Shown piece by piece: positions 6,197 to 37,900 of a DNA stretch of 64,000 bases. Source of the DNA: a virus (taxonomy: Duplodnaviria; Heunggongvirae; Uroviricota; Caudoviricetes). Within the stretch, counting starts at the first letter, position 1. Each line of letters starts with the position of its first letter. A program made the position numbers and the translations under genes. The stretch lies in the IMG/VR virus record IMGVR_UViG_3300001605_000025, positions 1-64,000 of that record; one strand, written 5' to 3'. The notes under the pieces were generated by a model. That model was not told the origin of the DNA and searched no databases. It was given only the letters and a program-made list of their open reading frames with translations.

Positions 6197-6200
6197 CTTA

Positions 6201-6625: not shown

Positions 6626-6746
6626 TCATTGCCTCCCGTTCGTGTATCATCTTGTGGGCATCGATCCGACGTAAGCCCACACGTCTCCGTTCATCGGTAG
6701 CGATTAGGATCTTCGCTGTGCATATCGGACAGGTATATATTATCAT
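6603..6746 (-). CDS. small CPxC protein (47 aa, hand-called)
   Basis: ATGA overlap with the stop of 6743..7144. Begins MIIYTCPICTAK. Confidence 0.3.
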   Translation of the reverse strand: MIIYTCPICTAKILIATDERRRVGLRRIDAHKMIHEREAMNGCKTDN

Positions 6747-7144: not shown

Positions 7145-7155
7145 GTTGTTACCTC

Positions 7156-7353
7156 TTAGTCTAATCGTTTAACTTTTACGATCTCCCTTAGATCTACATC
7201 ATCATGGTAACCACGCGGATCAGTCGCCATGTAGAAACACTCCACTACCATATCTTCAAATGATAGATCTTCTGGATTGATCTCCTGATAGTCAGCGATA
7301 ACAGGTCTCAGTCTCTCCAGTTGGTCGTCTGGTATCTCAACCTGGAAGATCAT
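7156..7353 (-). CDS. acidic hypothetical protein
   Basis: 65-aa ORF rich in D/E. Confidence 0.5.
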   Translation of the reverse strand: MIFQVEIPDDQLERLRPVIADYQEINPEDLSFEDMVVECFYMATDPRGYHDDVDLREIVKVKRLD

Positions 7354-7577
7354 ATAACTTTCGCTCCTAGAATCTCATACGCACGCTTGACATCGTCAAG
7401 TGTTGGAATTCCTTGGAAGTCGTTCAGTATTCCAGTCTCTGGATCTATAATCCAGTGGAACGTCTCATCGATATCAAGACTATCGATCTCAGTATCGGAC
7501 ATCGTTCCTACATCAGCATACAGTACGTTAGCTATCACTAACGGATTGTATATCCTTGGGTCTTTCATTTCAGTCAC
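7350..7577 (-). CDS. acidic hypothetical protein
   Basis: 75-aa ORF with a 4-nt overlap to its downstream neighbour. Confidence 0.5.
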   Translation of the reverse strand: MTEMKDPRIYNPLVIANVLYADVGTMSDTEIDSLDIDETFHWIIDPETGILNDFQGIPTLDDVKRAYEILGAKVI

Positions 7578-7580
7578 CGT

Positions 7581-7820
7581 TTACTGGTATTTAGTGCCGT
7601 ACAGTCGTACTGCTGCTACTCTGGTAATCTTATCTTGAACACTACCAACTTCACGTTGTAGTGTCACATATCTTAGTACAGCCATTTCAAATAGTTGATC
7701 CTGTTGTGGAGTTGTTTCACCAAGTATTGATTGTATGGTGTATTGAGCAAGTACGTTCGCTAACGTGATTGAAAGTAGTTCGTCAACTGTAAATTCCATG
7801 CTCACTTCATGATCCCTCAT
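7581..7820 (-). CDS. hypothetical protein (track ORF 7581..7865 trimmed to Met16)
   Basis: ATG at 7820 lies just after the stop of the hand-called zinc-ribbon gene. Confidence 0.45.
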   Translation of the reverse strand: MRDHEVSMEFTVDELLSITLANVLAQYTIQSILGETTPQQDQLFEMAVLRYVTLQREVGSVQDKITRVAAVRLYGTKYQ

Positions 7821-7825
7821 ATTGA

Positions 7826-7951
7826 TCAGTCCCTCCGATTCGGGTAATACCGTTCCGTTTTGCAATCCTTACACTGTACATGTTCCCCACCCGTTCTGGT
7901 ATTACGTACCGTCACGTTGGTGGATCCACACTTGTAACACTTGTTATGCAT
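7826..7951 (-). CDS. zinc-ribbon mini-protein (41 aa, hand-called)
   Basis: GAGGT SD. Contains CYKC...CKDC. Confidence 0.35.
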   Translation of the reverse strand: MHNKCYKCGSTNVTVRNTRTGGEHVQCKDCKTERYYPNRRD

Positions 7952-7969
7952 TGAAACCTCGTTATATCA

Positions 7970-8119
7970 TTACACTTCGGCTACCATTTTCATTAGTGCT
8001 TTGTCCAACTGTTGGTCATCAAGCTCTCCATTTTTTGCTAACTGCTTCAAGAAGGTTGTAGCACCTTCTTTAGTAGATAGATTGAGTTTCATGAACTCAT
8101 CAAACTGTTTCGCTTCCAT
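7970..8119 (-). CDS. hypothetical protein (49 aa, hand-called)
   Basis: AAGGAGA SD. ATG at 8119 lies 2 nt after the upstream stop. Confidence 0.4.
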   Translation of the reverse strand: MEAKQFDEFMKLNLSTKEGATTFLKQLAKNGELDDQQLDKALMKMVAEV

Positions 8120-8120
8120 G

Positions 8121-8519
8121 TTACGTCTCCTTTGGTTCCCAATCCCTCGGGTGTATATGCCTCGTTATATCGTGCACAACACCGTCATCGGTGGTATACT
8201 GTGTCAGTAATGTATCGCCAGTCATCCACGTTGTCTTCGAGTCGAGATACTGTGCGTTGAACAGTTCTCCAATTAGATCGTCCATTAGTACACAGATTAA
8301 CGTTGCCTGGTCTTGCTCGACTAGCTTGTTCAGAATCTTGCCGATCTTAGCTTGTGCCTTATAGTACGCTTTTCGATTAGCAAGTGGATACGTTGCATCG
8401 TTCACATCGAACATGTTGTGTTCCCACATGTTGGCTAGCTTCTTTATCTGATCAACGTGTAGTGACCGGTTAACGATTGCCTGGTTGAGCATCGTTTCAG
8501 ACTTCGTATATCCAGTCAT
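8121..8519 (-). CDS. hypothetical protein
   Basis: 132-aa ORF. Confidence 0.5.
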   Translation of the reverse strand: MTGYTKSETMLNQAIVNRSLHVDQIKKLANMWEHNMFDVNDATYPLANRKAYYKAQAKIGKILNKLVEQDQATLICVLMDDLIGELFNAQYLDSKTTWMTGDTLLTQYTTDDGVVHDITRHIHPRDWEPKET

Positions 8520-8809
8520 ACGTTCTCCAGTAGCTTTTTCTTATCGTTGTCAGACACCCAGATCTCGTTATGTCCACACGATCCCTTACACAGATACGGG
8601 TAACAGTGTTTCACTGCATGACAGGACATCTCAGGTACATCTGGACATGTTTCGTTCATTAACGGACATCGAGCGTCATCCCAGAACCTCATTACTTCTT
8701 CGAGGAAATTAATCCTACGTATTGCCCAGTCTGGAACATCATTCCAGTCACCAGACAGATGATCTGCATATCCGTCCGGATACTTTGGCTGTACTTTTTC
8801 ACGGTTCAT
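8516..8809 (-). CDS. Cys-rich hypothetical protein
   Basis: 97-aa ORF with 4-nt overlap coupling. Confidence 0.5.
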   Translation of the reverse strand: MNREKVQPKYPDGYADHLSGDWNDVPDWAIRRINFLEEVMRFWDDARCPLMNETCPDVPEMSCHAVKHCYPYLCKGSCGHNEIWVSDNDKKKLLENV

Positions 8810-9068
8810 TTGGTCTCACCGACACTACGTTTGTTTCATACTCCCAGTCATACTGAACATACGTGCAAGGAATTAGTGCATTCTTACACGCTTCAGCAAC
8901 CTTCTCTTGAAGGTTTGCTTGTGTACATCCTTCTATCCGAAGAAGCATTCCCTGGACGAACACTCTAGATGCATCAGTGATTATTGCACCGTAAACTTCT
9001 TCCAGATCACCATCGTGATATTTTGTACCGTCAGATACAAAATATATCGTCATGGTATCGCACCCCAC
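8799..9068 (-). CDS. hypothetical protein
   Basis: 89-aa ORF. Confidence 0.45.
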   Translation of the reverse strand: MGCDTMTIYFVSDGTKYHDGDLEEVYGAIITDASRVFVQGMLLRIEGCTQANLQEKVAEACKNALIPCTYVQYDWEYETNVVSVRPNEP

Positions 9069-9130
9069 ATAGTTCTACGAAACGCATAGTATACGCCTCG
9101 TACCGTCATACTCATAGCTCGAAACATAGT

Positions 9131-9466
9131 TTAGTCCTCTTTACTGTACTTCTCGATCAGTTGATCGAGTTCTACATAGAATTCTTTCGGAAACTGTTTC
9201 TTCGGTGCAGTCGAACGAGCTTCTGGTATTACCTTCGATTCGTCCAAGTATGCACACTCTCTCCAGAGTTCGAATACTCCAACTACTGGTCCGGAATCTT
9301 CCAGTATCTCGATCAGCTCTCCAACGTCAGATGTTACGATCTGGTTGAACCCAGTATCATCACATTCTTCAGGATCGGGCCACTTATATACAAACGTATA
9401 TAATCGACCGTACTTATCAACTAACCGTACACCTAACGGGTCGTTCGTACTATATGTTTCATCCAT
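9131..9466 (-). CDS. hypothetical protein
   Basis: 111-aa ORF. Confidence 0.5.
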   Translation of the reverse strand: MDETYSTNDPLGVRLVDKYGRLYTFVYKWPDPEECDDTGFNQIVTSDVGELIEILEDSGPVVGVFELWRECAYLDESKVIPEARSTAPKKQFPKEFYVELDQLIEKYSKED

Positions 9467-9468
9467 GA

Positions 9469-9978
9469 TTAGTCCTCCAGATTGATAATCTCGTACGTTA
9501 GCCCGTACATTCGCTTCTTTGTTCGTACTTCGCTACTTCTTTCATATGAACCAGTTAGTCCATCGAACCGTTCGAATAGTTCCCACTCATCGGAAATCTG
9601 TTCTTTCAGTCTTCGAACTTTCAGACACATCGTTCTCCATACAACATTATAGATGTAACATTTCGGTTTGAACGGAATACGTTTCCACTCAAACTTCTGT
9701 TCATGACAACGTAGAACTATGTTCGCGATATGTTCTTCGGAACAGTCAAAATTCAGTCTCGTTGTACCCTCATAGTAGAATGTTAGTTCCTCCATCACGT
9801 TCAGTTGAAATGATATGTTCGTCGGTGCGTTCTTATTGAACTCTCTCGTGGCTTCGGGCGACAGTTTATCTTTGGTCTCAGATGATCTAGATGCTCTTGA
9901 CCGTCGTGAACGATCAACATCATCATACAGTTTCTTTATTCTGTTCCATTTTTCTTGATCTGTTTCATCTAGTACCAT
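9469..9978 (-). CDS. hypothetical protein (first long gene of the leftward block)
   Basis: 169-aa ORF with an AT-rich promoter-like region upstream (9,980-10,060). Confidence 0.5.
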   Translation of the reverse strand: MVLDETDQEKWNRIKKLYDDVDRSRRSRASRSSETKDKLSPEATREFNKNAPTNISFQLNVMEELTFYYEGTTRLNFDCSEEHIANIVLRCHEQKFEWKRIPFKPKCYIYNVVWRTMCLKVRRLKEQISDEWELFERFDGLTGSYERSSEVRTKKRMYGLTYEIINLED

Positions 9979-10505
9979 GTTGACCTCTCGATCATATTCT
10001 CATTCTTATCTATCGTATATATATTAAACTTGTTCTCATATATAAGTATAGGTTCTCGCAATTAACCGTTAAGATGGTTATTACCATTCAGGCTCTCTAT
10101 ACCAACAAAATGTTTATTATATATAGTCCGGTAGTTTGCATGATAACGGTAGTGGCGCAGATGATGGAACTTAACGGTCTGTGAACTGTTGTAGGGAATC
10201 TTTCCTTTTAGAGGGTAGATCGGCTTTTGTCGGTGTGTCTTGCGGTCCTTCGGTCCGGAGCTCCGTAATTTCCCATGGGTATAGCTCTGCGTCGGGGATT
10301 GCATAGCACCCCTCGTAATCCATCTTACGAATCTTAATCTTCGTAATGACCCGTTTAATAGTGTGTTCGCTCCTTCGTCTGCACGCTTGCTCGATAATAA
10401 GGTTGGTCGTCCTTCATCCCCCGCATGCCTCTTCAGTTCGGCGGTAACCAGATTGAACGGTCGGTCGGTCGGGCCTCCTCCTAACGTCAGGAGTACCCCT
10501 TTAAC

Positions 10506-10514
10506 AAAAAAAAA
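10506..10514 (-). terminator. T9 run on the minus strand just downstream of a stop codon
   Basis: A9 on the + strand at 10506-10514, 8 nt after the stop of 10523..10627. Oligo-T terminators are typical of archaea and also form the tail of bacterial intrinsic terminators. Confidence 0.4.
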
Positions 10515-10522
10515 TTATGGTG

Positions 10523-10627
10523 TTACTTGCCTGTCATCTTAGCGGCAGATACGCTTTGTTTCCACTCATCCAGGACTTCACACCATTCACTCCACATAGC
10601 GGCTTTGACCGCAGGGTAGTCATGCAT
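10523..10627 (-). CDS. small hypothetical protein (34 aa, hand-called)
   Basis: GAGGT upstream of the start. Sequence MHDYPAVKAAMWSEWCEVLDEWKQSVSAAKMTGK. Confidence 0.3.
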   Translation of the reverse strand: MHDYPAVKAAMWSEWCEVLDEWKQSVSAAKMTGK

Positions 10628-10636
10628 ACTACCTCG

Positions 10637-10945
10637 TTACTTCTTTGCGGCCTGGTCCTTCTTCTTTGGAGCCTCGTACCTGAACACGTTGTGCGCTACT
10701 TCTTTGAACCCTGCCTTTCCGTCCATTGCGTACTTAACAGTCATCCAGTTGACCTTCACCTTGGGCTCATCACCAGTCTTGCCTTCATTCAGGCCAGCAT
10801 CAAGCCATGCCCTCAGTTTTGCAACTGTGTAGTCCTGGCCATCCGCCATGATCTCCTTCAAGATCTTGTTGTACCTGGCTACTGATTCAGTCTTCGACCT
10901 TCCGCGCACTTCAACGTTTGCCTTGATTGCATTCCAGTCTGTCAT
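10637..10945 (-). CDS. hypothetical protein, Lys-rich C-terminus (possible DNA-binding)
   Basis: 102-aa ORF. The antisense 10517..10885 is a shadow ORF. Confidence 0.5.
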   Translation of the reverse strand: MTDWNAIKANVEVRGRSKTESVARYNKILKEIMADGQDYTVAKLRAWLDAGLNEGKTGDEPKVKVNWMTVKYAMDGKAGFKEVAHNVFRYEAPKKKDQAAKK

Positions 10946-11103
10946 GCTTTACTCCTTGGCACCCTTTTTTGTGCCACATGCTTCACAAATTTCTTCATCG
11001 ATACACACACTTTGATATCATCGGTCGGCTTGCCCAGTGCTAGTTGGCAACGCGTCATCCCCAATCTATCATTCAACAGGTCAGGACATCCATCACACTT
11101 CAT
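10942..11103 (-). CDS. small Cys-containing protein (53 aa, hand-called)
   Basis: ATGA overlap with the 10945 start. Begins MKCDGCPDLL. Confidence 0.4.
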   Translation of the reverse strand: MKCDGCPDLLNDRLGMTRCQLALGKPTDDIKVCVSMKKFVKHVAQKRVPRSKA

Positions 11104-11128
11104 CCTTCATCCCCCCTTTTATTTTCAA

Positions 11129-11314
11129 TTAAACAATAATAACAATTTCATGTTCAAGATCCGGTACTAATTCCTTAACAGTAACATACCCTCTTACATC
11201 AGGTAATCGGTCCGCTACAATAACGTTGCCTCGATAATTAACAGTTGCGTAAACTGTGATAGTTCCAAGATCAACTTTGGTCCATAACATATCGTCAACA
11301 CGTATTGGTTCCAC
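11129..11314 (-). CDS. hypothetical protein
   Basis: 61-aa ORF with GGAGG-like SD (AAAAGGAGGTTAAAAG) upstream. Confidence 0.45.
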   Translation of the reverse strand: MEPIRVDDMLWTKVDLGTITVYATVNYRGNVIVADRLPDVRGYVTVKELVPDLEHEIVIIV

Positions 11315-11374
11315 TTTTAACCTCCTTTTTGTTTTTCAACAATATAAAAACAACTTCAACAGTTAACCACTATA

Positions 11375-11401
11375 ATCAACCCCAGCTAGGCGGGGGTTGA
11401 T
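11375..11401. promoter_or_regulatory. hairpin with 9-bp stem ATCAACCCC/GGGGTTGAT and 9-nt loop
   Basis: Perfect inverted repeat between the C-free operon and 11129..11314. No adjacent T-run. Confidence 0.3.
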
Positions 11402-11463
11402 AGGTGTCGGTAACCTTATAACTATAACGCTTAGTTGTGTAACCATATAAGTCACCTTTCATT

Positions 11464-11470
11464 AAAAAAA
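11464..11470 (-). terminator. T7 run on the minus strand closing the C-free operon
   Basis: A7 on the + strand, about 45 nt after the stop of 11515..11706. The first C on the minus strand appears 13 nt later. Confidence 0.4.
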
Positions 11471-11514
11471 CTTTAAAATAACTCTCTATTCCACATACAC
11501 CTTATTACTTCTTA

Positions 11515-11706
11515 TCACCACTCCTCAAATTCAAATCCATCTTCATCCACCAACTTCCCTTTCTTTCTATTCAATAAATTATTATAACTATAATCCTCCT
11601 CACTTTCTTTCTCATCAACATTACACATACCTTTAACATTCCATCCACAACTTATTATCTCACACTTTCTCCCTTTCCAACAAATCTTATCTTTACCTTC
11701 AATCAT
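11515..11706 (-). CDS. C-free-mRNA protein d (63 aa, Cys/Trp-rich)
   Basis: Track ORF. Contains CWKGRKCEIISCGWNVKGMCN. No A, P, T, H or Q residues. Confidence 0.5.
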   Translation of the reverse strand: MIEGKDKICWKGRKCEIISCGWNVKGMCNVDEKESEEDYSYNNLLNRKKGKLVDEDGFEFEEW

Positions 11707-11845
11707 TATTCTTCATCTCCTTCATATATTCATTAATACCTTTATCATATACTTCTTTACTCACTTCTTTCCACCACTTACATTCAATACAATCATCATA
11801 ACATTCATCAACCTCTTTATTTAAACAAAACCCATATCTACTCAT
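11699..11845 (-). CDS. C-free-mRNA protein c (48 aa, hand-called, Cys-rich)
   Basis: ATG at 11845 overlaps the upstream stop by 8 nt, and its own stop overlaps the 11706 start. Contains CLNKEVDECYDDCIECKWW. Confidence 0.4.
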   Translation of the reverse strand: MSRYGFCLNKEVDECYDDCIECKWWKEVSKEVYDKGINEYMKEMKNND

Positions 11846-12107
11846 TCTTAATCACCACCCAATCTTCAACCTTTAATATATCATCATTCAACATTAACTT
11901 CTCAATAACATACCCCTCTTTATTCAACATATCCTTTATTCTATATATATCCAAACACTTATTCATATATCTACTTAAATCACCAACAATATCCTTTAAT
12001 CTCTTACTCCCACCAATCCTCACACTCATAATAACCATATCACATACATTACTATAATTAACCTTCTCAACCTTACCACATAACATTCTCATACAATATA
12101 CCTCCAT
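11838..12107 (-). CDS. C-free-mRNA protein b (89 aa)
   Basis: Track ORF built only from F, L, I, M, V, Y, N, K, D, E, C, W, R, S and G. Confidence 0.5.
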   Translation of the reverse strand: MEVYCMRMLCGKVEKVNYSNVCDMVIMSVRIGGSKRLKDIVGDLSRYMNKCLDIYRIKDMLNKEGYVIEKLMLNDDILKVEDWVVIKNE

Positions 12108-12127
12108 TATAATTTCACATAAAATAA

Positions 12128-12253
12128 TTAAATTCTCCTCTCACTATACATCATCTTACCCTTCTCATCAAACTCCAACTTCTTCTTAATATCAACAATC
12201 TCCCATTCATTCTTATCCTTATTCCAAACCTTATCCTTCACAATCTCAATCAT
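12128..12253 (-). CDS. C-free-mRNA protein a (41 aa, hand-called)
   Basis: Strong SD AGGAGG (12262-12267, minus strand) 8 nt upstream of ATG at 12253. Confidence 0.4.
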   Translation of the reverse strand: MIEIVKDKVWNKDKNEWEIVDIKKKLEFDEKGKMMYSERRI

Positions 12254-12478
12254 ACTCTTAACCTCCTATATATTTTCATAAACCTTAATAACATTAATAA
12301 AAATTTAACATATAACTATCTATATTCTATATATATGGTCACCGTACATCATTACCACTAGTTGCAATGTTTTGCACAAGCTAGCACCGGAAATACTTAA
12401 GGAGTAGCCCGTTAGTCCGTCTACTCGAACGTTCCGTTTAAATATAGGCACGTCCCAAAAACTTTACCGGAGATACCA

Positions 12479-13006
12479 ATGGATAGTGAACAACCTTGTC
12501 CTGTGTGTCGTGCTGGTAGTCTTGGAGCTACCATGATGCGGGACTGCCACCTTGGACGAAAGACTACATTTCAAGTTGCCGCCGAACTAGACACAACTAA
12601 CGAACTTGTGATGAAGCATATCAATGAGTCCCACGAACTAACGTTTGATGAGGACGGAGCGTTACGGTCACAAGATAGACTGATGGATGACTTACTGAAA
12701 ACGTTAAAGACACTGAAAACGTGGACGGATTATGTTGTAAATACAGTTAAGGATCCAAACCAGATCGACCGTGCTAAAGTTGATATGTTAGTCCGGTTAT
12801 CACAGGAAGCTAGAAAGACAATCGAATCGGTAGCTACTTTGCAGGGAAGAAAGGGCCCGGGAGACACACATATCCAAATGCAGATCCTGAACGGTAAGGT
12901 CGTTCTGTTGACTAATACGATTATCGATGTAGCATGTCCAGACTGTAAGATGAAGATTCTAGATGCAATTGAAGGCCAACCATTGCTTATGGAGGCTCCT
13001 AAATGA
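12479..13006 (+). CDS. terS: terminase small subunit (putative)
   Basis: 175 aa, immediately upstream of and overlapping the large terminase by 4 nt. N-terminal CPVC zinc/HTH-like region. Confidence 0.55.
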   Translation: MDSEQPCPVCRAGSLGATMMRDCHLGRKTTFQVAAELDTTNELVMKHINESHELTFDEDGALRSQDRLMDDLLKTLKTLKTWTDYVVNTVKDPNQIDRAKVDMLVRLSQEARKTIESVATLQGRKGPGDTHIQMQILNGKVVLLTNTIIDVACPDCKMKILDAIEGQPLLMEAPK

Positions 13007-14478
13007 TTGAGACAGAGTGTCAGCTGTCAAGTCACGAGACGCTAGATGGAAAGGATTACGTTCAGTACATGAGAACTGTTCTAAAAGGTAAATCAGATCC
13101 AGTTTGGTGGATAAAAGAGTATCTAGGTGTTAAATTTGAACCACACCATATAGAACAAGAGCTCGTTCTACGTCAGTGGTATCGACATCGTTACAATCCA
13201 ACACTGATACCTTATAAGAATATGTACGTATTGGCGGGAATGAGGTCTGGAAAGACAGCACTTGATAGCATGATTACATGTTATGAACTGTTTGATGTTG
13301 TGACATTACCGAAGATTCCGTGGGAGTACTATAGCTTAATACGGAATCAGTTAGTAACGTTATCGATTCTATCGATTAGTCGTGACCAGTCAGATGACGG
13401 TCTATGGGGTAACGTCCAGCAGTTCCTCGACAAGAATGCGTGGTTCGACCAGTGGACTGACCTAACTCTGAAGTCAGAAAGTGCTGATATAGCGTCTAAA
13501 CGTGTTGGAATACGTGTTCTATCATCATCTAGCAGTACAATTGTAGGACGATCTAACAGATTCGTGGGACTAGATGAGTTAGATAGTTTTGAAAATACAG
13601 AAGGGAAGCGCGGAGCATGGAAAGTATTCACGAAAATGCAAAACTCAACACAGACATTCGGCCAAGATGGCCGACTTGCTGCAATATCATCATCGAACGA
13701 CGACCCGAATTCTATTATGAATACGTTAATCAGGCAGTCAGAAGGGAAGCAGAACGTTTTAGCAATTATGAAGCCTACTTGGATTATGAATACAGCGATT
13801 TCGGAAGCGGAGCTGAGGGAGGAGTACAAGGACAATCTAGCAGGGTTCTACAGAGACTTCGCATGTATGCCAGGTATGTACACTGGAATGGAGTTCCCAG
13901 ATGGTATAAAACTAGCTGATATACCGAATGTTTTCCTGACGAAACGTTCAGACGTTCCGTATGGTCGTGTCATTGCGATAGATCCTGCAGCTAAGAATGA
14001 TGCATTTGGTGTTGCTACTGGATATCGTGCGTTCGGTCGTGTGATTGTTGATGGGGTATGTCGGTTTCAGAAAACTGGAGATGAAGTCTTTATTAATCCA
14101 GAGGATATTGACAAGTTTCTAGAAGAATGTTATAAGTATATGAACATAAGAGCTCTTGTATTTGATACATGGATGTATCCGAACATTATTCATAAGGCAG
14201 AACATGATCACGGTCTTATGTGTGTCAAACATATTGTACGGAAAGCAGAATACGATGCAGTTAAAGGTATGATTAAACAGGGAACTTTGGATGTAGTAGC
14301 AGATCCAGTGCTAAAGCGTGAGTGTGAAGGATTAAAGATTATTAACGATTTACGGGTAGATCACCCGTTACAAGGGAGTAAAGACATGGCAGATTGTGTA
14401 GCAAACGTTGTATGGTACTTAACAGAATGTGAGGTTGAACCTCAGAAGCCGAGAATCTTATTAGCGAAGGTGTTCTAA
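13003..14478 (+). CDS. terL: terminase large subunit
   Basis: Walker A LAGMRSGKT, Walker B-like VGLDELD, and C-terminal RNase H-like nuclease motif IAIDPAAKNDAFGV. Confidence 0.9.
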   Translation: MIETECQLSSHETLDGKDYVQYMRTVLKGKSDPVWWIKEYLGVKFEPHHIEQELVLRQWYRHRYNPTLIPYKNMYVLAGMRSGKTALDSMITCYELFDVVTLPKIPWEYYSLIRNQLVTLSILSISRDQSDDGLWGNVQQFLDKNAWFDQWTDLTLKSESADIASKRVGIRVLSSSSSTIVGRSNRFVGLDELDSFENTEGKRGAWKVFTKMQNSTQTFGQDGRLAAISSSNDDPNSIMNTLIRQSEGKQNVLAIMKPTWIMNTAISEAELREEYKDNLAGFYRDFACMPGMYTGMEFPDGIKLADIPNVFLTKRSDVPYGRVIAIDPAAKNDAFGVATGYRAFGRVIVDGVCRFQKTGDEVFINPEDIDKFLEECYKYMNIRALVFDTWMYPNIIHKAEHDHGLMCVKHIVRKAEYDAVKGMIKQGTLDVVADPVLKRECEGLKIINDLRVDHPLQGSKDMADCVANVVWYLTECEVEPQKPRILLAKVF

Positions 14479-19738: not shown

Positions 19739-20713
19739 ATGGGACGATATGTAAAAATCTCAACTGAGACTGAATCAACATTTGGTAACGGCACTGCAAT
19801 GCTTGCTGTTGCTAAGTTCACACCAATTCGTGTGAAGAGTATATCGAACCCTGTTGATCGTGGTCTTCTGATTGAAGAGAACATTGAAGGGTATATCCCT
19901 ACTGCTGCATATGGTGGTGCTCTGAAACTTTCCGGAACACTGGAAGGTAATCTTAGACCTAAGCAGATGGAGAACTTGATTTACTCGTTAATGGGTGCAT
20001 CGGCGGCAACGGCTGCTGGGATCCTGACGGGTATAGTCTATACGATGGCGAATCCGTTAAGTATTCAGATGAAAATTGGTGAGTCAACCACAGCAGCGAC
20101 TACCGATCTGGAACTTGGCTACATGGGTGCTGCCGTTAAGACGTTCAACATGAATGTTGCTGCGAAGGAATTCGTAACTGCACGTTTCGACTGGTTCGCT
20201 AAGAACTATACAGCTGCAAGTCCGTATAGTCCTCCAGCTTCGGGAGACTATTCAGATGAAGAACCAATTGTGTTCTATAATGCTAGTGTATCATTCGATG
20301 GTGTCGACACGAGTGCTAAGATTAAGAACATGACGATAAACATCGACCGGAAAGTTGATGAGGAACGGTATGTTATCGGAGACTACACGTTGACTGAAAT
20401 TGGTATCAACGGTATGAATGAGGTTACAGGAGACATCACGTTTACAGAACATGAGTACGGTATCTTTAGACAGGCGTTATTCGGTGCAACCACTGCATCG
20501 ACACTTGGTTGCGATGATGCTGTCGGAACAGCAGCATTCTTAGCACAATTTACGGATATTGCAGTGTGTGGTGCTGAAGCAGTTAAGATGTATGTTGAGT
20601 TCGGATCGATTAAATTCGCATCTACCGACACTACAATTAATGGTCAGAACGAGATTGAGAAGAAAGTTTCATACCGTGCCGTTGGGTACTTCGGTATCGG
20701 TGTTGCTACCTAA
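19739..20713 (+). CDS. major tail (tube) protein (putative)
   Basis: AGGAGG SD. 324 aa. Located just before the chaperone and tape measure. No sheath gene was found. Confidence 0.55.
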   Translation: MGRYVKISTETESTFGNGTAMLAVAKFTPIRVKSISNPVDRGLLIEENIEGYIPTAAYGGALKLSGTLEGNLRPKQMENLIYSLMGASAATAAGILTGIVYTMANPLSIQMKIGESTTAATTDLELGYMGAAVKTFNMNVAAKEFVTARFDWFAKNYTAASPYSPPASGDYSDEEPIVFYNASVSFDGVDTSAKIKNMTINIDRKVDEERYVIGDYTLTEIGINGMNEVTGDITFTEHEYGIFRQALFGATTASTLGCDDAVGTAAFLAQFTDIAVCGAEAVKMYVEFGSIKFASTDTTINGQNEIEKKVSYRAVGYFGIGVAT

Positions 20714-20734: not shown

Positions 20735-21109
20735 ATGACAACGTTAAATATTAAAACTGCAAATGGAATCTATGAGGTTCGGAAACCAGCTGGAAAGCTT
20801 GGTGCTAGAAATATGATCATCCTGTCGAAGCTGGCGAATGTTCAGCCGATAAAAGTGAATGTGGAGAATGAAGATCCAGCTTTTGTTGAAAAAGTTCGAC
20901 AGATGAATAACGCTAAACAGATGGAAGCCTTCGGGAATGTCTTCGAAGAGTGGTCTGATAAGATCTTACCAACGATTGTTGTTAAGGGACCCTTTACGTA
21001 CGAAGAGATGCCTGGAGAGGACCAGCTGGCTATATTCCTTGCGTTGACACAAGAGACTCAGGTGACGGAAGAATTCTTTCAGATCTTGCCCGCCGAGCCT
21101 AGTGTATAA
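20735..21109 (+). CDS. tail assembly chaperone (gpG-like, positional)
   Basis: 124-aa acidic protein directly upstream of the tape measure. An alternative frame stays open past its stop (see findings). Confidence 0.5.
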   Translation: MTTLNIKTANGIYEVRKPAGKLGARNMIILSKLANVQPIKVNVENEDPAFVEKVRQMNNAKQMEAFGNVFEEWSDKILPTIVVKGPFTYEEMPGEDQLAIFLALTQETQVTEEFFQILPAEPSV

Positions 21110-21264
21110 CCTTGGAACATTAGCGTTCTTTACTGGGTCCCGACCCTCCGCTTTTTTCGAGTGGAACGATCCAGACGACTGGGCCGAACGACTAACGTTT
21201 GATAGTTTAGTAATGAACACTGCAATGCCAGAGCTAATAAATAAAATTATTGGAGGGGATTCCA

Positions 21265-24200
21265 ATGGCAGATCGTGAAATTATTGAGTACGAAATAGTA
21301 ATGGATGATACCCAACTAGTAGAGACGGAACGGAGAGTGAAGGAACTTCGTGGAATGCTTGAAGATGTCCGGAAAGGTGTTACTGTTAATATGACTGTAC
21401 CGGATATCGAGAAGGAACTGAAAGCTCGTGTTGCTGCTATAAATAGCTATATTAAGGGTAGTATTAAAATCGACGATATGTTCGATAGACGATTTGACAG
21501 AAATGCTGCTCGTTCTGTAGGTGATGATGTTGGTAAGCAAGTTGCAAAAGGAATGACTGAAGCAATACGAAGTGCCTTAAATAAATTCACACCTGATACT
21601 GATGTTAATCTCGAGAAGCATATTGCTGATCCCCTCCAGCAAAAGACTATTCGTGAAACGTTAACACCTAGTAAAACAAAGACATCACAACTTGTAGCAT
21701 CGAAACGTGAATCGTTAGCTAACATTAAACAGTCTATTACTGCCCTACAAAATCTAACCGCTGAACAGAAATCAGAGCTATCAAAGCGAAATAAAGAGAT
21801 CGACAGACTGTATAGTGATGAGGAACGGGCTGATAACGAGTTTATTGATCAGTTAACTGATGCTGAAGAGCGTCATGATCAAGTTATTAAAGACTTATCA
21901 GTTCAGATGAAAAAGCCACGGTCTGAACTGAAAGATGAAGGCTTCTATATTAAAGGGAAGTTCGTAAAGACTGGATTCGGATCACATAGGGACGTATTGG
22001 AACCCACACCATTAGTTACTCCAGCTAGTAAAGAGTATGGAAAAGGCATCGGAGCTCAACAGAAGATACCAGAACCAGGTCCTGTTCCGTCTAGATTACC
22101 GTCTCGTGACAGGTTTAAGACGAATGAAGAGTTTCTACTGGCGTTAAGAAAGGCCCGTGAGTTTTATATTACTCAGACGTTTAAGGAGATCTTTGGACGT
22201 GGAGCGATAGATACTAAGGCTTTAAGTAGGATGACAAAGGAGCAGCTAGCAATTACGACTAATGAGAATGCACCACGGAAGCCGAGATTAGATAAACAGA
22301 TCGAAACTGAGTTAAAGTTACTGTTTAACGATCCGAAGTATACTGTTAAGTTAAATGAGATATTAAAACAAGCTGAGACGAATGAACTTGGTGCTATACA
22401 AGAAATTAGATCTATTATAGAGTATGAACGTGGTAAAGTTGACGATATAATGCCCTATAATAGGATTAAACAGTGGAAGGATAGACTAAAGTCTACTGAA
22501 CCGGAGGATACTGGAAAACGTGAATATCATCAGGTAGTTCCGAGACATCAGGCGTATGATCCATTGTGGCACAAAAGGGCAGGACGGACAGTAGAACGTA
22601 CTGTATCAGCTGAACCGGTTGATCAGTTGACTGATAAGTTTGTGCGACAGAAAGACGTTAAGTATGATACGATATCTAAGATACAACGGAGGATGCGTGG
22701 TATTAATAAACTAGCTGATCAGTTGTATACTGTAATTCAGGACGCACAGACGTTATCACCTAAGTTTTATGCTGCACTAAATACTAGACAGCCTAAACCG
22801 ATTAGTAAGCATGCTTTATCACCAAAATTGGAAGCTATGCTAGAGGTAGAAGCTGAAAGACAGTTAGCTCCACAACGAGAAGTTCAGAGAGCTCCCGCTA
22901 CATTAGTTGCGTTTACTGGACATCGTCCAAATAAACTTGGTGGATATGATGAGACAACACAACCAGTTAGAGATATTAAAGCCGGACTAGTAGACTCTAT
23001 ACGGACTGCTATTGCCAGTGGAACGAAACATTTCATATCAGGAATGGCACTTGGTGCTGATATGTGGGCTGCAGAGGCAGTACTCGAACTTAAAAAGGAG
23101 TTCCCTGATATTAAGTTAACAGCAGCTGTTCCATTTAAAGGTCAAGAACGTCAGTGGCCTAAACCAGTACAAGAACGTTATAGTAAAATATTAAGTCAGG
23201 CTGATACTGTTAAGTATATCTCAGATGAAAAGTCAAAACTAAGTATATCTCAGATGATGCAGAAGCGTAACCAGTGGATGGTTGATCAAGCCGACAAGAT
23301 GATTGCCGTATTTAGCGGATCTGCTGGAGGAACTGCAAACACTATCAGAGCTGCTAAGAAACGTGGAATACCGGTAGAAAATGTGCTTGAAAATTTGAAA
23401 CAACCTGAACAAGCGAGAACAGAGACAGTTCGGGAGGCTAAGAAGACGTTAGGTCCTCAGTATGTTCCACCTGTTGTACCAACGACTATTGAGCAGACTG
23501 AGAAAGTTGTTAAGCCTGTCGAGAAAGCGATTCAGAAGCCGGTAACTGAAAAGCAGGTGGGTCCAGATGCGTTCGCTAAAATAGCTGATGCGATTAATAA
23601 TCAGTTGACGATCCAATCTGGACCCGGACTTACTCCTGAACAGTTAACTAAGCATATAGACTGGATGGGACTTGGAAAGGAAATTGGTACTGGGTTTGAA
23701 CCAAATCCTATTAATCTGAAACCGATTCAGGAAGCTATGGAACGGGTACTAAACGCTGAACCGCCAAAATTATTAACAGCAGGTAAACCAACTGAAGTGC
23801 CTGATAAGGTAACATTGTATCGTGGGGGAGCACGTAAGAAAGAAGATAGTGATATAGAATCTACAAGTAATTGGTTCACAGATGAGCTGGAACGTGCACG
23901 CGGATACGCAGCTATGCGGACTATGGCGTCTGAAGGAGAAAATAAAGTTCCAGCGATTAAAACAATTAGTGTTCCATCTAGTTTACTAAAAACGTTAAAA
24001 GATGTTGGGTCACATAGTCCGGGACATGAATTCCAGTTACCACCGGAAATTGCTAAACGTGCAGAAACTGCCCCAGACTTACTGAAAGGTCCGATCACTA
24101 TATATGGTAAGACACCAACAGTTAAAATGCAACAGGCTTACGATTCGTTAGTTGATAAGGTAATTCAACCAATAAAGACTGGGATTGATACATTTAATAA

Positions 24201-27200
24201 TCGATCAACTGAGATACCAGCTGAATCGGGAACGAAGTATTTCAAGAATGCCCCAAAGAGTCAACGATTTGAAGACTCATTAAGTGGACTAGATCGTAAA
24301 GAGTATATGCAAGAATCTCAAGAAGGACTTGATGCGTTACATAATGAAATGAATAATATGACCTGGGAGCAGAGTGGTGAAGTAAATAAAGTAAAAGATG
24401 TACAGAAGAAACGTCAGGACTTAATTGATTTTGTTAAGAATGCTGGTGTAAAAATTGGTCTCGATATCGATGAAACGATTCAAAGTATGAACGTGTTCTC
24501 GATTATGTTTGGTGAAGAGAGCAAGGGATTCTTAGATCCTGAATATATGAATAAGAATTACGAACAGTGGTTTGAGAAGCTAAATAAACTAAGCCCGATA
24601 TATAGTGATATACAAAAGTTCCTCGGGAATAAATCCGTACTGATAACAGCTAGACCAAATCTAGTGGGACTTCACGATAAAGCACAACAAATCGGTAAGC
24701 AGTTCGGAGCTATAGCAACGTTCGCAGTTGAGAATACGAAAGAGAAGGCTAAACTGATTAAGGAACTAGGACTAGAAACGTATTACGATGAGGATACGTT
24801 ACAAGTTACCAAATTACAGAAGGAGCTTGATGCAATAGGTGCAACGACTAAAGTTATGCAGTCTGATTTTGGTGTTGCAAGAGAGAAAGGTGAACTACCA
24901 AATGTTAAGCGTATGGCTGAACAAGCTACAGCTAAACCGGTAACTAGTCCTGTTAAGACTGAATTACCAACAGCTCCGGCACAGAAACCAACTAGGAATA
25001 CGATAGCTGATACGTTAAAGGGAATGGTAATAAACGGTGGTGCGTTAGGTGGTGCTGGACTTGGATTCCTTGGTGGGATGACACTTGGACCGTTACCTGC
25101 AGTCTTTACAGGTTGGTTAGGTGCTAACATTGGGATGTGGGTTGACCGGGTAATCAAGAGTGGTCAACTGAAACAGTCGATTGCGAATCTGTTCAATAAG
25201 ACACCAGTTGTTGAGATTCCACCTACTGTTGTTGAGAAGACAACTCAGGTTGCTACTGGAATTAGTGACGCAATGGCTGGGATGTTAGAACGTTCGACGT
25301 TCCAGGCACAGAAAGTTATACGTGATAAGTTTGCATCTGTTGATAAGAACGGCGGAACGTTAACGATTGAAGAGGCTCCTGGTGCAGAACCTGCTTATCC
25401 TGGTGCAGCTGTTCCAAATGTTCCGTATGTGAATCCTGCTCTCGTTACTAGAGTTGAAGGAAGCGTAACGGGTATAGTTACAGCAATGACTACAGCATCG
25501 AGAGATATAGCGACCGCTGGTGGAAAGGTAGCTGGACAGATACAAGTTCTTGGGATGGAGGACTTCGGAAGTCTTGGTGGTAGTATAAAGGAAGCTGCAC
25601 AGAAAGGTGTTCAAGCTGTTCAGGAGAAAATGCCACGATTAGGATCGTCTGAACGTCCATATACCGGTGGTATTCGTTGGCAGAAGTTCTTAGACGGAAC
25701 GTTGTTTACGGATCAGAAAGCTTATGAGGAAGCAGTTGCAGCGAAGATTGATGAGTCAATTAAGTTCCAGGTTGACACGCTACGTGAGATGACTGGACTA
25801 TCGTTAGAAGCAGCAACAACGTTACGAAAGGATCTAGCTGCTATAATTAAGCCATCTCGTATGAAGATGTCTACGTTAATTGGTAGAGCTAAGGCGTATA
25901 TCGAGACTAAAGGGGCAACTGGAACTACTCCTGAGGCACTGAAGGAGTTTGCAACTGGTGAGGAGAAGATATTTGAACGATCTCATCCTGCAATGAAGAA
26001 TCTAGTTCCTGAGGACGTTACACCGTATCAGAGAATGTTTGGACAGGACTACACAATTAAACTGTCATTCCTAGATTATGATGAGTTCATGGCTGCAGCT
26101 GAGACTGTAAGACAGTTACCTGGATGGACTAGTACCGCGACTAAGGAATTCGAACGGTATGGTCAGCTCGGAACTAATGTTCTACATACGATGAAAGTTA
26201 CCGGACATATACCTGGTGGAAAGGAGATTGGGGGACGGATTGAACAGGTACGGACAGCTACCGAAACGTTAGCAACTGGACCATCGGCTATAACTGAAAG
26301 AAGTCAGTTAGAGATTGGAGATAAACGACTGAACTTACAGGAACGGATGAACTTAGCTGCGATGTATCTGGATAAACTGAACTGGAAGCTTGTACGCGGA
26401 CAGATGGCTCTATTAGGTATCGCATTCTCGATGATGGGTGCAATCAAGATGATCCAGAAGGCCTGGTCGACTGTAACAACTAGTATGTCGAATCTACCTG
26501 ATATATTTAAGAATATCGGTATGGCGATGGCATTCGGACCAGCTAACGCACAGGGATTCCTACGGACTATGCTTGGATCGAGTAACCAGATTGTTGGATC
26601 CTGGAAGAAGTTCACCGGTTATACAGCAACGTTAAACTCGATGCTTGCGTACTTTGCATTCCGTTTACTACAGGATACACGTGTAATCTTTGCGATCGAT
26701 CGATTGGTAGAGAAGATTATAGGACTACTGTCCGATCAGGCATTCTTAGATAAGATCTTCGGATTAATAGCTAACATTATCGATGCGTTACCTGGTGCAG
26801 TTGATTGGATCGTTAGTATGGTAACATGGTTAATGGGAATTTTAGAGACTCCAGGGATGAAGGATGTTCTAAAATGGGCTCTCGCTATGGGATTAGCAGC
26901 TCAGTTCCTGATGACCCCGTTAGCATTGTTAGGTGGTGCCGTACAGTTCTTGGGTTGGGCAGTTAGTGCACTAGCAGCTATACTAGCAACTGTACAAGCA
27001 GGATGGACTCTACTATTGGGACAGTTAATGGGAGCGCCAGCTGCATTAACTCAGGTTGTTGCCGGAATAGCTGGTGGAATCGTTCTTGGACTAGCTGCAG
27101 TCTGGTTACTCGTTAAGATGGGAATCATCGATGCAGTAGTTAAGATCGGTGAAGAGTTCCAGAAGAACTTCCCTGATATAATGGCTATACTGAGGATAGT

Positions 27201-34953: not shown

Positions 34954-36437
34954 TGGCATATTACTACGTAGACTATACGAATGGTTCGGACTCTCGTACC
35001 GGATTACGTATACCTGCGGGTGACCATGATTCGGTATCTTATTATACAATCGATTCTACTGCAGATACGACACATTTTGTTGATTCAGCGTTAACTGGAG
35101 CAAACGACTACATTAACGGTGGGTACGTCTATAATGTTACACGGTCGATTGGAGCTGTAGTATCTGATTTTGATGCTGCAACTGATACGGTTACGCTAGC
35201 AACGGCAATTGCTGGAATGACTGCTGGTGACTCCTATTATATACTGAACTCGTTTAAGAATATCTCACAGTTTACAACTGCTGGATCAGCTAGAAGTCCA
35301 GGTGATAAATGTTACGTTAGAGCGAATCAGACACACAATCTAGCTTCTACATCACTAGGATTTGATGAGGATGGATCAGTAAGTGCGTTTATTTATCTGA
35401 TAGGTTGTAACGCGACTCAAGGTGTTGATCCGTATCATGATGGATCTGATGTTAGGCCGACGTTAGACTTTGGTGCTACAACAGCATACGTGCAGATATC
35501 AGGAGATTACTGGTGGTATATCCAGAATCTAGATGTTAGGGGATCAACTAGTTCTAATGGTAATATATCTCTTACTGCTGCAATTGGGACTGTTATTGAT
35601 AACTGTATGTCTAGAGATGGTGGAGCGAGCACAACTGGAATTAGAACTAGTATGACTAGAGGTATTTGGTTGATGAATTGTGTTGTCGCGAAGTGCCCGT
35701 ACTATGGAATGTATCTAATGGAGTCATATGTAGTTGTAACTAGATGTGTAATAGATGCAAATGCATCTGGGTCTTCGTATGGTATAGCTACACGTGGATC
35801 AGAAGTAATAGTTAATAATTGTATAATTGGAGCATCAACACCGTTTCTTACTGATATACACTTTAGTTATTCACATGTACTAGTTGGTAATTCTACATTA
35901 AGTAGTTCAGTTAAACTAGTTACGTTACCTGATTACGTGTTTGGTACAGGATCAACTGAGGATTATCTCGGAGTATATGGAAGTTTCTATCGCAAAGTTA
36001 GTTGTCTTGGGGTAACTAATTCAACAGCAGTTACTAGACCAGGTGGAGCATCATCAACTGTTGTTATGCAACCGTATATAACAATGTGGTATAAGAGTCC
36101 GATTAGTATAAACAATTCGATAATAAATCCAGATTTCCGTGTGTGGTCATCTGCTAACGAAAGAACGATTACCGTTTACATACGTGGGTTTAATTGGGCG
36201 TCGTTTCCGACTGCTGAACAACTATATATAAAAGCGGAATATATTTCAGCTGCTAGCCCACTAACATATAGTTCTGCTGTATCGACACAAGTACTAACAG
36301 ATAATACAACATGGGTAGCCTTTCGGGTTACTGTTACACCAGTTGTTGCGTCATTCATTAATATATGGGTTCAACTTGGACAGTTCGAAGATACATCAAC
36401 TGGTATATACGTTGATCCGAAGTTGGTGGTATCATGA
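34953..36437 (+). CDS. beta-helix (pectate-lyase-fold-like) tail spike/fibre protein, paralog 1
   Basis: N-terminus MAYYYVDYTNGSDSRTG is typical of right-handed beta-helix proteins. Repeated NC/xG-rich turns. Clear similarity to the next gene. Confidence 0.55.
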   Translation: MAYYYVDYTNGSDSRTGLRIPAGDHDSVSYYTIDSTADTTHFVDSALTGANDYINGGYVYNVTRSIGAVVSDFDAATDTVTLATAIAGMTAGDSYYILNSFKNISQFTTAGSARSPGDKCYVRANQTHNLASTSLGFDEDGSVSAFIYLIGCNATQGVDPYHDGSDVRPTLDFGATTAYVQISGDYWWYIQNLDVRGSTSSNGNISLTAAIGTVIDNCMSRDGGASTTGIRTSMTRGIWLMNCVVAKCPYYGMYLMESYVVVTRCVIDANASGSSYGIATRGSEVIVNNCIIGASTPFLTDIHFSYSHVLVGNSTLSSSVKLVTLPDYVFGTGSTEDYLGVYGSFYRKVSCLGVTNSTAVTRPGGASSTVVMQPYITMWYKSPISINNSIINPDFRVWSSANERTITVYIRGFNWASFPTAEQLYIKAEYISAASPLTYSSAVSTQVLTDNTTWVAFRVTVTPVVASFINIWVQLGQFEDTSTGIYVDPKLVVS

Positions 36438-37900
36438 CCGATTACTATATTGATTACGTTAACGGACTAAATACGAATACCGGATTACAATATAATCCGT
36501 TAACAGTTGATTCGACAGCTGATACGACACACTTAACAGATGCAGCACTCACCGGTATGACTATTGGAAACGGATCATTTGTTTGGAATGTAACACGAGG
36601 AGCTGGTGCTACAACACTAGCGTGGGATGATGGAACTGATACGTTAACACTTGGAACTGCGATTGCTGGTATGGCTGCGGGAGATTCATATTATCTGATT
36701 ACACCGTATAAAACGATATCTCAGTTCACGACAGCTGGTGGTGTACGATCTGCGGGTGATAAGTGTTATATTAGAGCAAACCAGACTCATGACTGTTCAG
36801 CTGCTAATATAGAGTTTGATGAAGATGGATCGTCTGTTGATTATATTTATCTAATTGGTTGTAACGTAAGTCAGGGTATTGATCCATGGCATGATAATTC
36901 TGATGTTAGACCCATAATAGATTTTAAGAATAGCTCAACATACTATATGTATTTGTATACTGATTATTGGTGGTATATTAAGAATTTAGACTTTACATCA
37001 ATCTATAGATCGTCTGCTGAAGCTGGAATATTATCAACTTGGGTAGTTCTTGGATTATATATTGACAATTGTCAGTTCCATAATGCTACAGGAACAGCAG
37101 CATATGCATTAAATCTAGCACGAGCAGGATGTGTTACTGTACATAATTGTGGGTTTTATTCTAATACAGGACCTGGATTATTTACAAATGAAAGTTGGGG
37201 AATTATAGAAGGATGCACATTCTCTAGTAGTGGTACTGGAACAGGTACTGGAGCAGCTTTCCGAGGAAGTGAATATATTGTAAAAGATTCAGTTTTTGGA
37301 TCACCAACTACATTTGCATATGATATACAGTCTGGGTACGGAGCGAATGTAATTCTGAGAAACTGTACAGTTAACTATAGTAAGTTTACCATTCCTGCAT
37401 TTTCATGGGGATCAATAGCAGTTGAAGATTATAATGGTGTATACGGAGATAAGTATCTAAAGACAGCTCGGGCAGTAATTACTAGTTCGACTGCTGTTAT
37501 ACGGGAAGGTGGATCACCAGAGTCTGCTTATTTAGTAGCAACATCATCTGATGTTGGTCAATATGATGCAGTAGGACTACATGATTCTATCGAACCAGAT
37601 TTTAAGATTTGGTGTACTGATACTACAACAGTTACTATTTATATGAGAGGAGCGGGATGGAGTTCCTTCCCAGTGACAACATACGACCTGTATATTACAG
37701 CTGAATATATATCTGCGACTAATCCATTAGATTATGAGTATGAGTATTCATCACAGGAATTATCTGATAATACTACATGGGTAGGTTATCAAGTTACGTT
37801 TACACCTGCTACTCCCTCGTACGTAGGAATATATGTATGTTTAGCACGGTACGTAGCTAGCACAGGTGTCTATATAGATATAGAACCAGTTATAACTTGA
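36434..37900 (+). CDS. beta-helix tail spike/fibre protein, paralog 2
   Basis: Shares long collinear blocks with 34953..36437 (DSTADTTH, TLxTAIAGMxAGDSYY, ISQFTTAG, GDKCYxRANQTH, FDEDGS, IYLIGCN, DYWWYI). Confidence 0.55.
   Translation: MTDYYIDYVNGLNTNTGLQYNPLTVDSTADTTHLTDAALTGMTIGNGSFVWNVTRGAGATTLAWDDGTDTLTLGTAIAGMAAGDSYYLITPYKTISQFTTAGGVRSAGDKCYIRANQTHDCSAANIEFDEDGSSVDYIYLIGCNVSQGIDPWHDNSDVRPIIDFKNSSTYYMYLYTDYWWYIKNLDFTSIYRSSAEAGILSTWVVLGLYIDNCQFHNATGTAAYALNLARAGCVTVHNCGFYSNTGPGLFTNESWGIIEGCTFSSSGTGTGTGAAFRGSEYIVKDSVFGSPTTFAYDIQSGYGANVILRNCTVNYSKFTIPAFSWGSIAVEDYNGVYGDKYLKTARAVITSSTAVIREGGSPESAYLVATSSDVGQYDAVGLHDSIEPDFKIWCTDTTTVTIYMRGAGWSSFPVTTYDLYITAEYISATNPLDYEYEYSSQELSDNTTWVGYQVTFTPATPSYVGIYVCLARYVASTGVYIDIEPVIT

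Follow-up and report, generated by a model that had tools for sequence, protein, structure and literature searches.

Why should a tape measure protein (TMP) carry a SLOG domain in its middle, and what could become of such a domain when the phage infects its host? The question is raised by a gene at positions 21265-28389 (+ strand) of the stretch of viral DNA analysed here, which comprises the first 64,000 nucleotides (nt) of IMG/VR record IMGVR_UViG_3300001605_000025 and is referred to as the window. The assignment of the gene product as the TMP of an uncultured siphophage is sound, because the synteny of the structural module, matches to TMP families in PHROGs and homology of the protein core to the TMPs of relatives all point to it. 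Judged from profile matches and alignments, its first cargo module is an intact and selectively maintained SLOG domain of the YoqJ/YpsA clade, which was probably captured from a small standalone early gene of a kind common in phages.

The Pfam family YpsA (PF06908) matched amino acids (aa) 548-693 of the TMP with 111.8 bits, where the cut-off is 27.7 (E=4.5e-32, covering positions 1-144 of the 168 in the model), and a phmmer comparison with YpsA of B. subtilis (PDB 2nx2) aligned about 150 aa at E=4e-19. These two matches bear out the sequence-only reading of this DNA, which had placed a YpsA/DUF1273 SLOG domain at nt 22,897-23,388 (aa 545-708). The domain also matches phrog_289. With the NCBIfam model PRK13660 it reached E=2e-24 and a score of 86.5, under the equivalog cut-off of 165, and we therefore regard it as a member of the family and not as a YpsA ortholog. 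A search with aa 526-729 as query returned 2,138 homologs, of which the best 120 were inspected. These are proteins of 158-334 aa with 40-53% identity, many of them named YoqJ-like or SLOG family, and the embedded domain is about 50% identical to standalone phage proteins of 160-180 aa. In an alignment with 25 YoqJ-like homologs it keeps 19 of 19 invariant residues (TGHRP, F..GMA.G.D, A.P, W, R...M, A and G.T). The motifs of the ligand pocket are seen as TGHRP in the N-terminal TG.+P loop, as FISGMALGAD with the GxD/E motif, and as a C-terminal GGT. The GxD/E pocket motif is required for the function of YpsA (PMC6459960). That all 19 invariant residues persist at about 50% identity points to purifying selection acting on the ligand pocket.

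To place the domain within the protein, two relatives reached via the capsid protein are informative. Both are IMG/VR contigs (L001 and L005) with capsids 66-70% identical to that of the studied phage and with the same gene order. The TMP of L005 (contig IMGVR_UViG_3300032156_000026, Ga0315295_10000266) has 2,573 aa and is encoded at 4865-12586. Core identity to the syntenic TMPs of the two relatives is 27-31% (E=1e-55). BLASTP aligned aa 1429-2147 with aa 557-1331 of the L001 TMP (27% identity, E=1e-55) and aa 1501-2123 with aa 1714-2377 of the L002/L005 TMP (E=2e-52). Homology to both relatives is confined to the C-terminal core, and their N-terminal halves are unalignable to the studied TMP. 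By this comparison the C-terminal ~950 aa are a conserved, predicted membrane-active TMP core common to the two related phages. Moreover, the last 529 aa match six PHROG families labelled tail length tape measure protein, with weak and consistent E-values of 2e-4 to 6e-3. The TMP identity proposed in the sequence-only reading is thus upheld by synteny, by these six families and by the homologous core.

The three proteins differ in what lies in front of this core. The L001 TMP has 1,374 aa and no recognisable insert. The L005 TMP has a HAD-like segment at aa 1213-1335 and no SLOG domain; it further contains a JAMM/JAB-type motif (HSHPEENAIISPDD) at aa 1482, for which the Prok-JAB family gave E=0.018, below threshold. 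Relative to a shared glycine-zipper landmark, the HAD-like segment lies upstream in the studied TMP and downstream in L005. In the studied TMP the inserts occupy aa ~545-1210 (~650-700 aa) with Pro/Thr-rich linkers at the borders, a region absent from the 1,374-aa L001 TMP. Since L001 lacks the inserts and L005 carries different ones, the region between the charged N-terminal part and the core is, as far as these alignments indicate, a modular cargo region that varies within this lineage. The parts of the studied gene are as follows.

21265..28389, + strand: TMP gene, a single open frame of 2,374 codons without internal stop
21265..22881, + strand: N-terminal charged region, aa 1-539, probably coiled-coil by composition; without family match and unalignable to the relatives
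22906..23451, + strand: YoqJ/YpsA-clade SLOG domain, aa 548-729 (PF06908, PDB 2nx2, phrog_289)
23452..23590, + strand: Pro/Val/Thr/Lys-rich linker after the SLOG domain, aa 730-775, from reading the sequence (Pro 11% over aa 701-800)
23591..24411, + strand: orphan segment X, aa ~776-1049, without family match
24448..24801, + strand: HAD-like segment, aa 1062-1179, with the motif strings DIDET, LITAR, ENTKEKAK and YYDED
24991..25149, + strand: 'glycine-zipper' segment, aa 1243-1295, Gly-rich and hydrophobic, following a Pro/Thr-rich linker
25549..27705, + strand: conserved TMP core, aa 1429-2147, by BLASTP homology with the TMPs of related phages
26875-27471, + strand: very hydrophobic, membrane-like block, aa 1871-2069, by hydropathy
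27649-27666, + strand: GEEGPE motif, aa 2129, within the conserved core
27706..28386, + strand: C-terminal extension with a second GG..V..GE..IP motif, aa 2310-2336

Outside the inserts the protein has the composition that had been ascribed to it. An N-terminus of the usual coiled-coil TMP kind fits the first 500 aa, which are low in Gly and in which charged residues (DEKR) make up 33-39%. The hydrophobic Gly-zipper segments were recovered as the Gly-rich stretch at aa ~1243-1295 and the hydrophobic block at aa 1871-2069, and the C-terminal GEEGPE-type motif was found at aa 2129. Gly content over aa 1201-1300 is 16%, and counterparts of the glycine zipper are present in the L001 and L005 TMPs. 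A C-terminal 'GG.V..G...V.GE..P' motif occurs twice in the studied TMP, as RARGGKVVAGTPVIVGEEGPEVFVP at aa ~2114-2138 (27640-27705, + strand) and as LASGGFVMQTGAAVVHKGERIIPAEE at aa 2310-2336 (28192-28272, + strand), whereas the relatives have one copy. The two copies suggest that the C-terminal TMP module was duplicated in the studied phage. The terminal VTNY..TVNNKTDEKYL..L motif of the C-terminal extension is common to L005.

What else is carried in the cargo region? The sequence-only reading had described two enzyme-like inserts. The SLOG domain stood up to scrutiny, the HAD-phosphatase-like domain did not gain recognition, and a third stretch of about 320 aa between them (aa 730-1050) had been overlooked. 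For the proposed HAD domain at nt 24,452-24,800 the four motif strings are present (LDIDET at 1066, LITAR at 1126, ENTKEKAK at ~1153 and YYDEDT at 1173). Their order and spacing fit; motifs II-IV are short and allow more than one alignment. None of the profile and structure methods used, however, recognises a HAD domain in aa 1062-1179. Pfam, NCBIfam and PHROGs gave no HAD family even at E<=10, PDB gave no match either by phmmer or with two-sequence profiles, and the segment had no match by tblastn in phage genomes or by a word-indexed search of a large protein database. Using hhalign, the segment was also compared with a mini-profile built from the E. coli HADs gph, yrfG, yjjG and yigB. It reached a probability of 0.8-2%, and the true HADs serB and yigL reached only 20-27%, so that this test is of low power. 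Co-alignment with HADs in MAFFT was negative or uninformative. Single-sequence AlphaFold models were unreliable (415 aa, pLDDT 38.0; 164 aa, pLDDT 38.6), and the 164-aa model showed beta-alpha alternation with strands at the positions of motifs I and II.

Two observations speak for the segment. In a background of ~120,000 residues of open frames, drawn from the window and all fetched loci, the pattern DxD[EG]T[LIVMF] of motif I was confined to four true HADs of E. coli and to two TMPs, with an expectation by composition of ~0.02 per TMP. In the L005 TMP, DWDET, IFSSRG and an identical 8-mer ENTKEKAK stand in a collinear segment, at a pairwise E of only 0.1-0.3. Because the DxDET motif is specific and the L005 segment collinear, a real, possibly HAD-like domain is favoured. 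That aa 1062-1179 form a HAD domain proper has, in our estimate, somewhat under an even chance. The sequence-only reading had named failing profile searches as a refutation, and on that score its HAD half is not confirmed.

Segment X gave no match in Pfam, NCBIfam, PHROGs, PADLOC or PDB, and its AlphaFold pLDDT was 38. When aa 730-1330 were compared exhaustively by phmmer with 1.84 billion representatives, the sole match was a fragment of this very protein, 100% identical. By these searches both aa 730-1050 and aa 1062-1179 are sequence orphans. One candidate within segment X was considered and rejected, namely an R-S-E ADP-ribosyltransferase (ART) at aa 847-925 (23803-24040, + strand of the window) suggested by the stretch 'VTLYRGG...ESTS...GHEFQLP'. 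No ART family was found there in Pfam or PHROGs and PDB gave no match. From R853 to S866 there are only 13 aa, and the spacing from R to STS in known ARTs is far longer than this.

What could the cargo do? We judge the chances to be even that it is delivered into the host together with the TMP and that the SLOG domain then acts on a nucleotide derived from nicotinamide adenine dinucleotide (NAD+) or ADP-ribose. On this path the cargo, including the SLOG domain, would stay in the TMP of the mature virion, would lie extended and non-native inside the tail lumen and would be expelled with the TMP once the tail opens. It would refold at or inside the host envelope or in the cytoplasm, ahead of phage gene expression. 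The SLOG domain would then most likely bind or cleave an NAD+/ADP-ribose-derived nucleotide, following the proposal that viral YpsA-clade SLOGs counter cyclic ADP-ribose (cADPR) signals. As a virion holds only a handful of TMP copies, it is more plausible that the domain acts catalytically or on a very specific target than that it sequesters its ligand stoichiometrically. The SLOG domains of viruses are of the YpsA clade and usually occur as standalone proteins; they have been proposed to degrade cADPR-like immune signals, and SLOG domains in defence systems of the ThsA/ShosA type sense NAD-derived signals (PMC9503650). We consider effector delivery at the start of infection plausible, with indirect evidence in the cysteine-free state of the embedded domain, in its full set of family-invariant residues and in the variable cargo region seen among the relatives.

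A wider reading is more doubtful, and we put it forward tentatively as rather unlikely. According to it, the middle of the TMP would be an exchangeable cargo bay that feeds ready-made, cysteine-free enzyme modules through the tube of the tail and into the host before the DNA, here a nucleotide-processing SLOG plus a divergent HAD-like nucleotidase and in a relative HAD-like plus JAB-like, which would disarm nucleotide-based immune signalling (e.g. the cADPR of Thoeris-type systems) at time zero. If true, this would be the first siphophage ruler protein to act as a platform from which intracellular anti-defence enzymes are delivered.

Several points weigh against delivery of an active SLOG domain. 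Retention in the virion, ejection, refolding and arrival of the cargo in the cytoplasm are steps that we infer, and the nucleotide activity of YoqJ-type SLOGs is itself putative. Three folded domains of ~180 aa exceed the lumen of the tail tube, and because they are too large for it a non-native state, unfolded or otherwise altered, must be assumed for storage. The HAD-like part failed all profile and structure tests. The SLOG insert is known from one phage, with no second one in viral, metagenome and genome collections. No cultured phage has a terminase more than 22% identical to the one studied here, and the assignment of a host from it failed. Finally, the sole independent record of the protein, a fragment (P0001), starts only at aa 845, and the SLOG junctions are therefore without independent confirmation.

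How do the alternatives fare? The one that survives best is that the inserts have no function after ejection and are tolerated in frame or merely lengthen the ruler and the tail. TMP length sets tail length, the lengths of 1,374, 2,374 and 2,573 aa among these phages show that it is evolutionarily labile, and two of the three modules are orphans without a recognisable fold. Nevertheless, a passenger without function should hardly keep every one of the 19 invariant SLOG residues at ~50% identity to standalone homologs, nor would DxDET and ENTKEKAK be expected to stay conserved between TMP segments that are otherwise ~25% identical. Overall we regard a role as mere spacer as unlikely.

The cysteine content of the protein bears on a second alternative. 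Among the 2,374 residues of the TMP there is not one cysteine, against ~26-31 expected from the other proteins of the phage, and the TMP of L005 likewise has none in 2,573 aa. The embedded SLOG domain contains no cysteine either, whereas each of the 25 standalone homologs contains 2-11; the residue preceding FTGHRP is Cys in 20 of these 25 and Ala in the TMP. This loss suggests an adaptation of the captured domain to storage in the virion and expulsion outside the reducing cytoplasm. The absence of cysteine from the embedded domain therefore favours its retention in the mature TMP. According to the second alternative, the TMP would be no more than a vehicle for expression, and its modules would instead act late in the infected cell, or would be removed by proteolysis as in lambda gpH, and would never be delivered. 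TMPs are made abundantly late in infection, linkers border the modules, and proteolytic TMP maturation is known. However, no in-frame internal ribosome-binding site with start codon was found near the SLOG domain and no protease motif in the TMP (HExxH and JAMM were both searched), i.e. neither an internal translation start nor a protease motif able to release the domain. A total loss of cysteine is also better explained by exposure in the virion or outside the cell than by a purely cytoplasmic life, and the standalone homologs stand in early and not in late modules. A function confined to the producing cell is therefore quite unlikely in our view.

That last point rests on the two closest standalone homologs. 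They lie in replication or early modules, near genes for a DNA polymerase, a single-stranded DNA-binding protein, a methylase and Lar, and the relatives of the embedded domain would thus be intracellular early-gene products. The contig with the closest standalone SLOG gene has nothing else in common with the window. As a third alternative, a delivered SLOG domain could have another target and perturb FtsZ assembly and cell division, or redox/NAD physiology, like YpsA of B. subtilis. Overproduction of YpsA blocks assembly of the FtsZ ring in a manner that depends on the GxD/E pocket, and the authors raise this as a possibility for phage YoqJ too, although several residues essential to YpsA's division phenotype are not shared by YoqJ (PMC6459960), and the embedded domain is YoqJ-like. 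Moreover, a handful of molecules per infection seems insufficient to titrate FtsZ, and we consider this target improbable.

That the giant open reading frame (ORF) is an assembly chimera or a fusion of several genes by sequencing error is highly improbable: although protein databases lack a full-length protein and fragment P0001 begins ~350 nt past the SLOG domain, so that a contig break lies near the insert, the 7.1-kb frame is fully open, the SLOG, X and HAD-like segments are uniform in GC content, in GC content at third codon positions and in codon usage and fall within the range of the other structural genes of the phage, the embedded domain, in contrast to every homolog, lacks cysteine, an uninterrupted TMP of 2,573 aa exists independently in a related phage, and P0001 reproduces aa 845-2374 at 100%. 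P0001 is a contig-edge record, and the contig carrying it was not located. The gene thus appears as one ORF and not as several, in agreement with the sequence-only reading.

The surroundings of the gene are those of a structural module and comprise the following features.

13003-14478: large terminase, from matches to PHROGs
between terminase and capsid in the gene order: portal-sized ORF of 499 aa
17599-18513: major capsid (PF25209)
19739-20713: tail tube (PF18906)
20735..21109, + strand: 124-aa ORF in the interval from tail tube to TMP, at the position of a tail assembly chaperone; by position alone, without family match
21066..21278, + strand: 70-codon frame that overlaps the end of the chaperone-position ORF and reaches the TMP start, in the +1 frame relative to 20735-21109
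28392..31298, + strand: two downstream genes of 313 aa and 653 aa at distal-tail and tail-tip positions; by position alone, without family match

The gene order is therefore TerL, portal-sized ORF, capsid, tube, 124-aa ORF, TMP, 313-aa ORF and 653-aa ORF. At the syntenic place directly 3' of the TMP, L001 has a 333-aa ORF, with a 719-aa ORF next to it, and L005 has a 311-aa ORF. The 70-codon frame may recall a frameshift extension of the chaperone ORF of the G/GT type. Its frame is +1 and not the usual -1, and the sole slippery heptamer (CCCTTTA at 20990) is not adjacent. Tail proteins with PKD and beta-helix domains are encoded 3' of the 653-aa ORF. One protein of this tail/receptor-binding region (31778-33175, 34953-36437 and 36434-37900, + strand) has two PKD domains; two others, encoded consecutively, are right-handed beta-helix proteins and may represent depolymerase-like fibres.

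Further features were seen elsewhere in the window. The minus strand carries a replication arm (49031-50950, 56223-58508 and 43723-44355) with a homolog of the ribonucleotide reductase large subunit that has a TSCPD domain, a family B DNA polymerase and an ERCC4-type nuclease. Where the gene strand switches, at ~12 kb and ~42 kb, the GC skew also changes sign. A Ro60/TROVE protein with a vWA domain is encoded at 61973-63496 on the minus strand (PF05731 E=2e-30, PF25045). Just upstream of its gene, at the edge of the window (63953-64000, minus strand), lies a 5'-truncated tRNA-like Rfam match. This match is a candidate tRNA-like module of a Y RNA partner of the YrlA type.

Is the embedded SLOG domain found elsewhere? 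A tblastn search with the domain gave 199 matching records among 50,697 phage genomes, of which about 90 were listed; the rows inspected were the top 40 of the search with the whole TMP and 60 sampled evenly down the SLOG ranking. All listed matches were small standalone genes annotated as DUF1273, SLOG, DprA-like or 'GTP-binding domain'. A TMP-embedded SLOG domain was found neither among these ~90 of 199 phage records nor among the top 120 protein homologs, and full-text literature searches turned up no report of a SLOG or DUF1273 domain within a TMP. The whole TMP had no homologs in a word-indexed protein search and no megablast match in phages, and patterns from its sequence retrieved no locus in viral or metagenome contigs. 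Searches of viral, metagenome and genome collections with an alignment of the TMP core returned only the two known IMG/VR contigs and one fragment; the core is unmatched in genomes and prophages of this kind are therefore not indicated. Domain-bearing TMPs and polyvalent virion proteins are already known. A SLOG domain fused into a TMP appears to be undescribed, as the sequence-only reading had supposed.

Delivery of the SLOG domain with the TMP, the reading that we prefer, would have consequences beyond this phage. Known cases of enzymes packaged in advance are anti-host enzymes in the phage head (T4 Alt, MuF fusions) and cell-wall lysins within tail proteins. If the reading is true, the ruler would offer a new route, by which a non-contractile phage would place an intracellular effector before expression of its own genes, when NAD-derived immune signalling would otherwise trigger. 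The TMP would also be a natural test case for the storage of folded domains in a 4-nm tail lumen and for their refolding after passage through it, and the complete loss of cysteine from a captured domain would be a concrete, testable signature of the constraint that this passage imposes. In addition, since the cargo region is variable and has linkers on both sides, engineering of TMPs for protein delivery may be feasible.

Comparable systems show which parts of this arrangement have precedents. Lysin domains within TMPs are on record, and the TMPs of mycobacteriophage TM4 (Mt3 motif), T5 (pb2) and the S. aureus phage phiIPLA35 resemble the studied protein as their ruler contains an extra module that travels with the virion and comes into action on expulsion of the TMP (PMC6116005). 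However, these hydrolase modules act on the peptidoglycan of the envelope, whereas the module described here is a SLOG domain of nucleotide-binding type without a match to a lytic family, and its homologs are probably intracellular early-gene products. Standalone YoqJ/YpsA-like SLOGs (PF06908), such as YoqJ of SPbeta and those of Bacillus, Microbacterium and Erwinia phages, share ~40-53% identity and the same invariant motifs with the embedded copy. Unlike it, they are proteins of 158-334 aa encoded in early or replication regions and contain 2-11 cysteines, against none here.

Virion-delivered multidomain effectors exist as well. The polyvalent proteins described by Iyer et al. in 2017 combine several effector-type domains in a large polypeptide believed to enter the host alongside the DNA; the study mentions neither tape measure proteins nor SLOG domains (PMC5512222). 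Polyvalent proteins are mostly MuF/portal-associated or based on conjugation and typically include a metallopeptidase that separates the domains (PMC5512222), whereas the studied TMP has one recognisable domain, the SLOG, and neither a HExxH nor a JAMM motif. Contractile injection systems have modular effectors related to TMPs, and the Sle1-type effectors of actinobacterial systems likewise consist of a TMP-like, membrane-active scaffold with exchangeable functional domains that is packed into a tail-like tube (PMC13277306). Compared by description, however, these effectors are the cargo of tail-like nanomachines with a C-terminal functional domain, and the protein studied here is the ruler of an infectious phage. 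Lastly, the defence proteins ThsA (Thoeris) and ShosA have domains of the same superfamily, with a weak similarity of the embedded SLOG to ShosA (E=2e-5) and no match above any curated threshold. They are sensors or effectors of host defence, whereas the SLOG domain described here is part of a phage virion protein.

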